Origin: Balamuthia mandrillaris
Lineage: Eukaryota
Reading direction: 5' to 3'
Assembly: GCA_031835245.2 (NCBI GenBank)
Contig: JAVKOQ020000028.1
Location: forward strand, 62,001 to 126,000
Length of the DNA stretch: 64,000 nucleotides
A program made the translations under genes and the position numbers. Under the pieces are notes generated by a model, which searched no databases, had not been told where the DNA came from, and worked only from the letters and a program-made list of their open reading frames with translations. This document shows, in pieces, positions 39,392 to 41,454 of the stretch; position 1 is the stretch's first letter, and every line of letters begins with the position of its first letter.

Positions 39392-41454
39392 ATGAGCCTA
39401 TTTTCTTCTTCTTGTTCTTGTTCTCAGATAGAAGCAAGCAACAAACGTCAACGGCTCCACGACCCTTGTGTAGTGCAGCAGCCGCCGTCGCGTGGCACCA
39501 GCTCTTGGATCGTGCAGAAAAGCGCGGAGAAGCTGCGCGCCGCTGGAGCTACGCAGGTGCTGCTTTTTGGTTCCGCCGTGTGGAGCGCAAGACCGAGGGA
39601 CATCGATCTGGTAGTGAGGGGATTGGACGAGAACCACCGCTTTCGCTTGTGGCTTGAATTGGAAGGGGAGTTTGGCTGTCTTATTCAACTCCTGGCGGCT
39701 GAGCACATCAAAAGCCAAACTCTGTGGGAATCGATCACAAAGTACGGGTGGGTACCCCTTTGTTGCTGTTGATGGTTTCGATGATTACTGATGTTGAGAT
39801 ACCTCTTTTCCAAGCATCGACGTTACCAAAGGGAACGTATCTTTGCCGGCAATGCCGTACACACAGGCACAGTTCTCCCACGAGCTGAGATCCTTTGCTC
39901 GCAAAAAAGTTACAGAGTTAAGCAGGGATGAATCTGTGTTCACCACCCATAACAAGAACAAGAGGTGGAAGGTGCGCCCACTCCCACCTATTCATCTGCA
40001 TTGACTGAGGCTTTGTTTGTAGCTCTTTGTCCAGATCCTCCATTGGTGCAGGAAAAGGTTCAAATGGAATTGTCCAGTCGGTGACGAAAGTGAGGAACCC
40101 GACCGCGAAAATCATCACGCGCTACTCGTAATGATGTTTAAAAGCGTGCTGAGTCCCGGTGTCATCGACAAACTGAACCACCTCCGGGAGCAACGCAACA
40201 ATTACTCGTAAGGACCCTGTCATCCTTTTTTGTTTCGGTTGGCGTTGGTTAAACGGTTTAATGCAGATACGACGATGTTATCTTGGCTGGGAGGCTCACC
40301 GAGAGCGAAATGCAGCAACTTTTAGAAGACTTTTTAACGGAGTGGGTGTCTCCTATGGGTTACTTGGATGACCTCGTCAACTGACAAAATTTTTATTTGC
40401 TATATAGATTAGAATTATTTGTTGGCCAATGCCTGGCGTTAAGGCGCTGGCTACCTCCTCCTCCAGAGGGAGTTCCTCAGCCAATCAGAGAAAAGCTGAA
40501 CGCCCAAGCAGCAAAGATGAACAAACAGTTCAACCAACGCCTCACAGCCAAGCAAGCCGAAATCGATGTCTTAAAAAAACAATTAGCTGAAGCACTGGCG
40601 GTACCGCAACAGCAAAACAAAAGCGGGGAAGGAGAAGCCAAAGCGGAAGGGGAACAGGAAATAGAGGAAGAGGAAAAGGAAACAGAGGAAGAGCAACTGA
40701 ACGAGAGCGAGAAAGAGACAGAGCCAGAGGAGACAGCCAGAGATGAAGAAGCAAATCAACAAGAAGGCGAAGAAGAGGAGGAAGGCAAGGAAGAACATGG
40801 CAGATACGAAGAAAAAGAAAGTAAAGGAGATAGCACCGGTGTTCAACAGCAAGCTTCCTTACAAGAAAAAACTGTTGGCGAGGAGCAAGCCACCACTCCC
40901 TTCATCCCGGTCGGCATTGAGCTACCAAACGACCTTCTGGAGTTTGTGCTGCAACACCCAGATGTGTGGACCTTTCTTTTGGAGATGGACGAAAGGATCT
41001 GGCAGGACCAGTTTGTTATTTGCCTAAGGCTTGTCGTGGACCACGAGGACGAAACCCTGCGCGATAGGTTCACCCAAAACTTCAAAGCACATTGCGCCAG
41101 CCCGAGCGAACACATTTCTTGGGCATGTTATCAATTCGCAGGACTAATTTGGACTCATCACCTCTTCATCACGCAACATATCCGACAAAAGGTACATGCA
41201 TTCACTTTCATTATCTTTGTTGTTGTCGTCGTCGTCGTCGTTGTCGTCGTCGTCGTTCTTCTTCTTCTTCTTCTTCTTCTTCTTGTTCTTCTTCTGCTTC
41301 TTGTTCTTGTTCTTCTTCTTCTTCTTCTTCTTTCGAATCATTTACCTGGGAGTGTACCGCATAACAGCCGAGGCAGCAGCATTTGAAGAAAAAGAAAAAC
41401 AAGAAGAACAAGAAGACAGGAAGGAAACGCAACAAAGGAGGAAGAAAAAAGTGA
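39392..41454 (+). CDS. Minimal nucleotidyltransferase (MNT) fused to a HEPN-like domain, with coiled-coil/acidic region and basic tail
   Basis: Exons 39392-39747, 39815-39971, 40023-40207, 40267-40341, 40408-41191, 41368-41454; all introns GT-AG and in frame. MNT motif VLLFGS...DIDLVV; HEPN-like HALLVMM...VLSPGVIDKLNHLREQRNNYSY. Start codon uncertain (possible acceptor at 39427). Confidence 0.8.

Follow-up and report, generated by a model that had tools for sequence, protein, structure and literature searches.

A spliced gene of Balamuthia mandrillaris joins a minimal nucleotidyltransferase to a HEPN-like helical domain and is likely of bacterial derivation

Modules that combine a minimal nucleotidyltransferase (MNT) with a HEPN protein are among the commonest prokaryotic toxin-antitoxin (TA) systems. 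Characterisation of the fused forms dates only from 2026. A sequence-only reading of a 64,000-nt stretch of Balamuthia mandrillaris DNA (hereafter the window) proposed that such a module is encoded by an intron-containing gene of this amoeba. This locus raises the question of whether a TA-like module has become a eukaryotic gene, where it came from, and what its product does. The published record on this point is brief. One sentence in the accessible part of PMC13000451 mentions fused HEPN-MNT proteins of eukaryotes without naming one, and the eukaryotic HEPN proteins described in the portion of PMC3710099 at hand (e.g. sacsin) carry no MNT. The terms ‘HEPN’, ‘toxin’, and ‘nucleotidyltransferase’ are absent from the main text of PMC10471605. 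Literature searches that took in few subscription papers listed none on an amoebal MNT-HEPN gene; such proteins may be listed in the supplementary files of PMC3710099 and PMC10471605.

As summarized in Table 1, the locus can be resolved into six exons. When joined, these form a frame of 1,644 nt that encodes 547 aa and has its sole stop at the end. Retention of intron 1, 2, 3, or 4 introduces an in-frame stop, and retention of intron 5 a frameshift. The five GT-AG introns had been drawn from the sequence alone, and their ends proved correct. A 1,502-nt contig from run X1 (Logan contigs; depth 22.7), presumed to be RNA on the basis of the tool’s guess, omits exactly these five introns and shows no mismatches to the gene in its listed pieces; all five junctions were thus borne out in transcript-like data. 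The first donor (...ITKYGIDV), likewise placed correctly from the outset, agrees with the X1 contig and with both homologs described below (IQKYGMDV, IQMFGMDV). In run X2, the introns are read through, as expected of DNA. Three raw-read RNA runs (X3-X5), of which 3-5% each was sampled, yielded hardly any reads from the gene and covered none of the listed junctions; since these were too shallow, the splicing evidence consists of one contig in one run. The spliced gene is real. Its start codon is a candidate only, because the X1 contig begins at 39514. The ATG at 39392 is in frame, and an upstream exon from the ATG at 39282 is also possible; the acceptor available to that exon is also used by the NCBI model of the gene, P0001.

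Table 1. Features of the MNT-HEPN gene, in window coordinates.
Feature	Position	Strand	Description
Possible alternative first exon	39282..39377	+	ATG 39282; phase-0 donors 39366 or 39378; acceptor AG ending 39427; without RNA support
Exon 1	39392..39747	+	most of MNT; start codon putative; spliced contig covers from 39514
Minimal nucleotidyltransferase domain	39506..39824	+	aa 39-122; G60-S61, D70, D72, Gln99 at the third-Asp column
Intron 1	39748..39814	+	GT-AG, 67 nt
Exon 2	39815..39971	+	MNT end, linker, first HEPN-like helices
HEPN-like helical domain	39846..40450	+	aa ~130-272; profile kinship to PF20797 HepT-like_2; H202...L-R226-x-x-R229-N-x3-Y234
Intron 2	39972..40022	+	GT-AG, 51 nt
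Exon 3	40023..40207	+	conserved His202; R226, R229-N230
Intron 3	40208..40266	+	GT-AG, 59 nt; interrupts RNNYS/Y motif
Exon 4	40267..40341	+	Tyr234, last HEPN-like helix
Intron 4	40342..40407	+	GT-AG, 66 nt
Exon 5	40408..41191	+	helical-domain end; W-x-P...GVxQP motif and coiled coil (predicted); then acidic stretch and unassigned helical C-terminal region
Acidic low-complexity stretch	40622..40888	+	aa 330-418, 42% E+D; absent in homologs
Intron 5	41192..41367	+	GT-AG, 176 nt, contains simple repeats
Exon 6	41368..41454	+	basic tail with 57% K+R (candidate nuclear localisation signal); stop

P0001 presents the gene differently. This 984-aa model, named ‘Protein O-glucosyltransferase 1’ (window 37483-41454), fuses it with an upstream Glyco_transf_90 gene. 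It was the single match among 255 candidates in a word-based protein search and is 98% identical to the spliced protein over 545 aligned residues; a second word-based homolog search matched none of 1,204 candidates. The join is probably wrong and P0001 a chimera of two genes, because the upstream frame ends at its own stop (39042), X1 depth is 0 across 38928-39359, and the upstream gene is covered by separate X1 contigs at depth 4-6, compared with 22.7 for the MNT-HEPN gene. The first-intron donor of P0001 is also contradicted by the X1 spliced contig. The surroundings of the gene are eukaryotic, comprising the Glyco_transf_90 gene, a Pin1-type WW-rotamase gene on the opposite strand, and a protein kinase gene, and no viral or defence context was seen nearby. 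The Pin1-type gene (WW + rotamase; window 41527-42125, minus strand) is convergent, with the two stop codons ~70 nt apart. GC3 is 0.67 for the MNT and 0.60 for the helical domain, with neighbours at 0.70 and 0.62.

A phmmer search of 1.84 billion representatives returned five matches at E <= 0.001. In addition to the Balamuthia gene itself, these are P0122 (430 aa, 43% identity, E 3e-40), P0123 (313 aa, 37% identity, E 3e-15), the stand-alone MNT P0125 (92 aa), and P0124, a tandem-repeat protein dropped as a chance match. P0122 and P0123 both contain an MNT and a helical domain, have a GSx8DxD loop with all three Asp, and start ~44 residues ahead of the MNT. As in Balamuthia, their domains are followed by a W-x-P...GVxQP motif and then a predicted coiled coil. 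Their low-complexity N-termini and long tails, together with a hydrophobic C-terminal stretch in P0122, suggest that the hosts are eukaryotic. The C-terminus of P0122 consists of a basic stretch and a hydrophobic, tail-anchor-like segment, and this protein may sit on a membrane. Several prokaryotic MNT-HEPN fusion clusters are among those nearest P0122 in the Atlas, at a score of 0.81, which serves as a lead only.

Profile and predicted structure support classification of the N-terminal domain as an MNT of the prokaryotic antitoxin type rather than a eukaryotic Pol beta. Exon 1 reached E 0.011 against Pfam Polbeta, short of the cut-off, and matched four PDC-S09 models of PADLOC (best E 2e-4), which are candidate defence models. 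An NCBIfam search was blank, and sequence searches of the PDB were blank or at chance level. The structural model was built on a 10-row alignment including seven bacterial-type MNTs. It is a confident alpha/beta MNT, with pLDDT mostly 70-94 over modelled residues 1-90, and contains the ~90-aa Pol-beta-type alpha/beta core of the fold. In a VIA search of 48,161 chains, the top four matches were all MNTs (Z 10.0, 9.5, 9.3, and 8.1; rmsd 2.0-2.3 across 77-86 residues; 8xeh_E, 5yep_A, and 1no5_B among the top structures) and Pol beta reached Z 5.5, a comparison that leans to the MNT side, as the sequence-only reading had it, and that is guided rather than blind because bacterial MNTs were in the model alignment. 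The best eight Foldseek rows were Shewanella MntA (E 0.001-0.003), whereas TUTases appeared only at E 0.14-0.2.

The GS...DxD layout first noticed in this domain stands in part. G60-S61, D70, and D72 are present, and fold and profile agree with a prokaryotic MNT, but the spacing is GSx8DxD, with a loop two residues shorter than in GSx10DxD, and the third acid is replaced by Gln99. Across 49 MNTs, this column contains D in 45, N in 2, and E in 1; Q occurs only in Balamuthia. In MntA, the third Asp is a ligand of the second Mg according to the available part of PMC7641770. The corresponding carboxylate is absent from the Balamuthia protein and present in P0122 and P0123.

Relatives of this MNT were found beside PF20797 genes. 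In metagenomes, exon 1 matched an operon (L001) with an MNT 40% identical to it and a partner gene of the PF20797 (HepT-like_2) family; no relatives were detected in genome contigs, and plasmids gave only rows at E 9. With the A2 profile, 12 of 301 genomes of one bacterial phylum and 6 of 301 of another were matched, and in nearly every case the match was confined to the MNT part. In a phylogenetic tree of MNTs, those of the Balamuthia gene, P0122, and P0123 grouped together (98/56). This group was nested with weak support (88/28) among MNTs mostly from PF20797 operons, in a sample biased to two bacterial phyla and built without eukaryotic Pol beta/TUTase-type NTases.

The helical domain is very probably kin to HEPN, judging from profile comparisons, and its kin are likely of the PF20797 type, the usual partner of this type of MNT. 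The C-terminal half of the three-protein alignment was compared with 15 PF20797 proteins, chosen as neighbours or relatives of MNT matches, and scored 30.5 (P 2e-4, probability 45%), a value reached by none of 150 column shuffles. Against six further sets of 3 to 21 sequences (PF01934, PF13643, PF05168 in two subsets, DinB_2, and hemerythrin), the same half remained at shuffle level, leaving PF20797 as the only one of seven family sets to score above shuffles. In addition, a profile of the Balamuthia protein and its two fused homologs aligned with 12 bacterial MNT-PF20797 fusions over 202 collinear columns (probability 97.3%). The helical half contributes to this match, as the score of 79.7 (69.7 for the MNT half alone) exceeds all 60 shuffles of the C-terminal half, which reached at most 73.5.

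Single-profile and structural searches gave less. In P0001, P0122, and P0123, the helical domain had no Pfam match (below the PF20797 cut-off), and a 122-sequence HMM of a PF20797 subfamily scored 0.6 bits, a chance value equalled or surpassed by 87 of 2,000 shuffles. Three fold searches, one helical-domain model being single-sequence, yielded no significant structural match: at a model pLDDT of ~55-75, HEPN chains scored Z 3-5.5, not above unrelated bundles, and Nog1, CH-domain, and other bundles ranked ahead of them. The helix pattern itself is compatible with a HEPN bundle. No solved member of PF20797 was found by PDB sequence search, and an Atlas search with the helical part gave only leads under the bar. 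Homodimer modelling, in which the alignment was not used, scored 0.00 and is evidence neither way. The initial description of the domain as a HepT-like HEPN thus survives as profile kinship to PF20797; it does not extend to classic HepT (PF01934) or to a significant fold match. Another candidate was the COG1895/UPF0332 type of HEPN, with its R-x-x-x-D-Y motif. With 3 sequences only, this comparison scored 12.1, was equalled in 5 of 25 shuffles, and is not significant.

Both predicted active sites are altered in Balamuthia. When the sequences are aligned, His202, Arg226, Arg229, and Tyr234 fall on PF20797 residues that do not vary. The RNNYSY segment pairs with RHxxxHxY with two residues absent, and the His of RX4HXY has no counterpart as a result of this gap. 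The full motif, R-N-N-Y-S-Y-D-D, spans a splice junction seen in the X1 contig; it contains no His at R+5 or R+7, and Asp is found where the homologs have the R+7 His. P0122 and P0123 read R-N-x3-Y-x-H (Rx6H), within the looser Rx4-6H rule. Tyr234 is invariant in all three proteins and aligns with the acceptor Tyr, and the motif residues are conserved among Balamuthia and homologs at 31-42% identity. With Gln99 and the missing His, the Balamuthia protein is short of one predicted catalytic residue per domain, each of which both homologs keep. An active role in AMPylation or RNA defence, as first suggested for this gene, is therefore doubtful for the Balamuthia copy.

Caution also applies to the opposite label. 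‘RNase-dead’ is not secure, since the R+5 His is rare in the bacterial PF20797 subfamily (2 of 122, compared with 10 of 11 readable fusions) and H202, R226, R229, and Y234 match invariant positions. In this subfamily (L001 664-1146, P0002-P0121), 119 of 122 sequences have Asn at the Rx4H position, while a W-H further upstream and the R-H pair never vary, which hints at another active-site arrangement. As described in the part of PMC3710099 that could be consulted, HEPN proteins without the motif can remain toxic, and fused HEPN domains typically shed their RNase residues and act as binding domains.

Half of the protein (residues 273-547) is a tail with coiled, acidic, helical, and basic portions. 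The acidic stretch is followed by a ~100-aa region of helical and globular appearance (window 40892-41191) with no Pfam match at E 0.5; it is absent from both homologs.

Variation between strains provides a view of constraint on the gene. Run X2 and the reference show 15 listed exon differences, of which 9 are synonymous and 6 non-synonymous; the expected synonymous share is 0.21-0.26 (P 0.001-0.006; dN/dS ~0.18 among listed differences). The three listed exon indels are all multiples of three, and two frame-breaking indels fall in introns. The signal of purifying selection is suggestive only, because the counts derive from listed differences, with 47 further rows outside them, and mostly leave out one contig with 20 differences. 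Run X2 agrees with the reference at G60-S61, D70, D72, and Gln99; its contig over 39399-39960 carries 13 differences, none at G60-S61, D70, or D72. Over window positions 39931-40243, one X2 contig has no differences and a 6-nt deletion, and another has 20 differences and a 9-nt deletion. These may represent two alleles or a second gene copy.

The protein can be compared with several known systems. Bacterial Polbeta (PF18765)-HepT-like_2 (PF20797) fusions (L010, L025) and two-gene operons (L001) share with it the domain order, core length, 202-column collinearity, W/N-H, LxxxRxxR, and Tyr. The Balamuthia gene differs from these bacterial proteins in its five introns, GSx8DxD spacing (x10-11 in theirs), 275-aa eukaryote-style tail, two-residue deletion in RHxxxHxY, and Gln in place of the third Asp. 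Natural fusions of this kind (L010 979-1797 and L025 144-950, both minus strand; L109-L127) were matched at E 1e-20 in 18 of 401 genomes, and the alignment used 12 copies that are intact over their full length. These fusions differ from FhepTA of Shewanella, and none has a solved structure. Type VII HepT/MntA systems (PF01934 or PF08780 with PF01909; Shewanella, Legionella, Aphanizomenon) share the MNT fold, the MNT-before-HEPN order, and the Tyr adjoining the Arg motif, whereas the Balamuthia protein is a single polypeptide with no PF01934 profile match.

In overall build, the protein resembles FhepTA and the cyanobacterial fusions. FhepTA of Shewanella is, like it, a single-chain MNT-HEPN protein of similar core size. 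As far as the accessible text of PMC13000451 goes, FhepTA is active, retains both signatures, and is carried on mobile elements; the Balamuthia gene lies in the nuclear genome, is spliced, and has changes at both sites. An MNT and a HEPN-like domain thus occur in one chain without intact NTase and R-phi-xxxH-x-Y motifs. GSX10DXD and RX4HXY, as class I HepT/MntA is defined in the available part of PMC7641770, are likewise absent. The protein is not assigned to class I HepT/MntA or to FhepTA, since it fails the defining motifs of both. Other parallels are kanamycin NTase, GlnD/GlnE, and sacsin, which the part of PMC3710099 at hand describes as cases in which a fused HEPN has lost its RNase motif or has become part of a multidomain protein of eukaryotes. 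In contrast to kanamycin NTase and GlnD/GlnE as presented there, the Balamuthia NTase is a true minimal MNT of the TA type.

On the basis of these comparisons, the gene was likely acquired from bacteria, as the sequence-only reading had also proposed. That reading placed the fusion after the transfer. This step is not required, as 12 natural bacterial fusions are collinear with the gene, and fusion of the same two families may predate transfer. A bacterial operon, or a gene already fused, would have entered a protist lineage and then gained five introns and a tail made up of coiled coil, acidic stretch, and basic end; its GC3 resembles that of the host. Viral contigs gave no matches to the A2 profile, P0122, or P0123, and at the sensitivity of these searches nothing points to a viral carrier. 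A two-residue deletion may have removed the His position of Rx4H, which would have made the module safe to keep. In the family, the MNT would have adenylylated the invariant Tyr, given that both homologs keep all three Asp; that of Balamuthia would bind ATP-Mg and transfer AMP poorly or not at all, as its second-metal ligand became Gln. The protein may have been retained by selection in an oligomeric, possibly nuclear, binding or scaffold role. Our preferred reading, held with middling confidence, is that of a spliced, bacterial-derived MNT-HepT-like_2 fusion disarmed into a non-toxic regulator that binds nucleotide and either RNA or protein.

Four other explanations were weighed against this. 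The protein could be an active AMP transferase in which a dead HEPN serves as the substrate-binding part, with its own Tyr234 or other amoeba proteins as target. Retention of G60-S61, D70, and D72, also in X2, agrees with this, as do the three Asp of both homologs and the invariant Tyr234 at the acceptor position. There are precedents in the aminoglycoside nucleotidyltransferases and GlnD/GlnE; such a route of domestication is described in the consulted part of PMC3710099, and fused FhepTA is reported to self-AMPylate in that of PMC13000451. We nevertheless consider this rather unlikely, as the Gln at the second-metal ligand is unique among the 49 MNTs and the loop is shortened; P0122 and P0123 suit this explanation better than the Balamuthia protein does. 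A second alternative is a working, self-guarded dimeric HEPN RNase for defence or stress arrest, sterically held by the MNT until release. Its site residues match invariant PF20797 positions despite the low identity among the three proteins, the Rx6H of the homologs satisfies the Rx4-6H rule, the MNT matches PDC-S09 models, and the FhepTA MNT blocks HEPN dimerisation even without AMPylation (PMC13000451, in the text available). Against this, Balamuthia has no His at R+5 or R+7, the RNase activity of PF20797 has no solved example, and neither viral nor defence context was found around the gene. Such an enzyme, cutting RNA through a variant site of His202, Arg226, Arg229, and Asn230 (Rx6H in the homologs), seems improbable here.

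More sceptical explanations carry still lower probability. That the MNT is joined to an unrelated helical bundle, with a chance likeness to HEPN, is very unlikely. The Pfam, HMM, and structural matches are all below significance and Nog1 and CH-domain bundles outrank HEPN chains, yet of seven family sets only the cognate partner beats shuffles, the protein is collinear at full length with natural fusions, and MNT-HEPN fusion clusters are among the Atlas neighbours of P0122, as a lead. Least likely is that the gene is a mere tail of the 984-aa glycosyltransferase or a recent insert decaying neutrally. While P0001 is annotated in that way and the 5' end has no RNA cover, the zero-depth gap and unequal depths in X1, the upstream stop, the short leaders of the homologs, the five introns, the host-like GC3, and the synonymous excess all point the other way. 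A bolder extension envisages an undescribed protist family of intron-bearing MNT-HEPN proteins still working as TA switches, which amoebae would use against giant viruses or endosymbionts, which we regard as a long shot. Just as speculative is its proposed mechanism, in which an RNase with R-N-x3-Y-x-H would be silenced in cis by AMPylation of the motif Tyr, with P0122 and P0123 armed and Balamuthia partly disarmed.

The Balamuthia gene provides a concrete case of an MNT-HEPN module that persists as a spliced nuclear gene of an amoeba under apparent selection and that was masked by a mis-joined annotation. If both of its sites are dead, this would amount to a neat, if modest, instance of gene transfer. 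Together with the two homologs that keep the Asp triad, it forms a small natural series in which to ask whether eukaryotes perform MNT-type AMPylation and how a TA module may be tamed.
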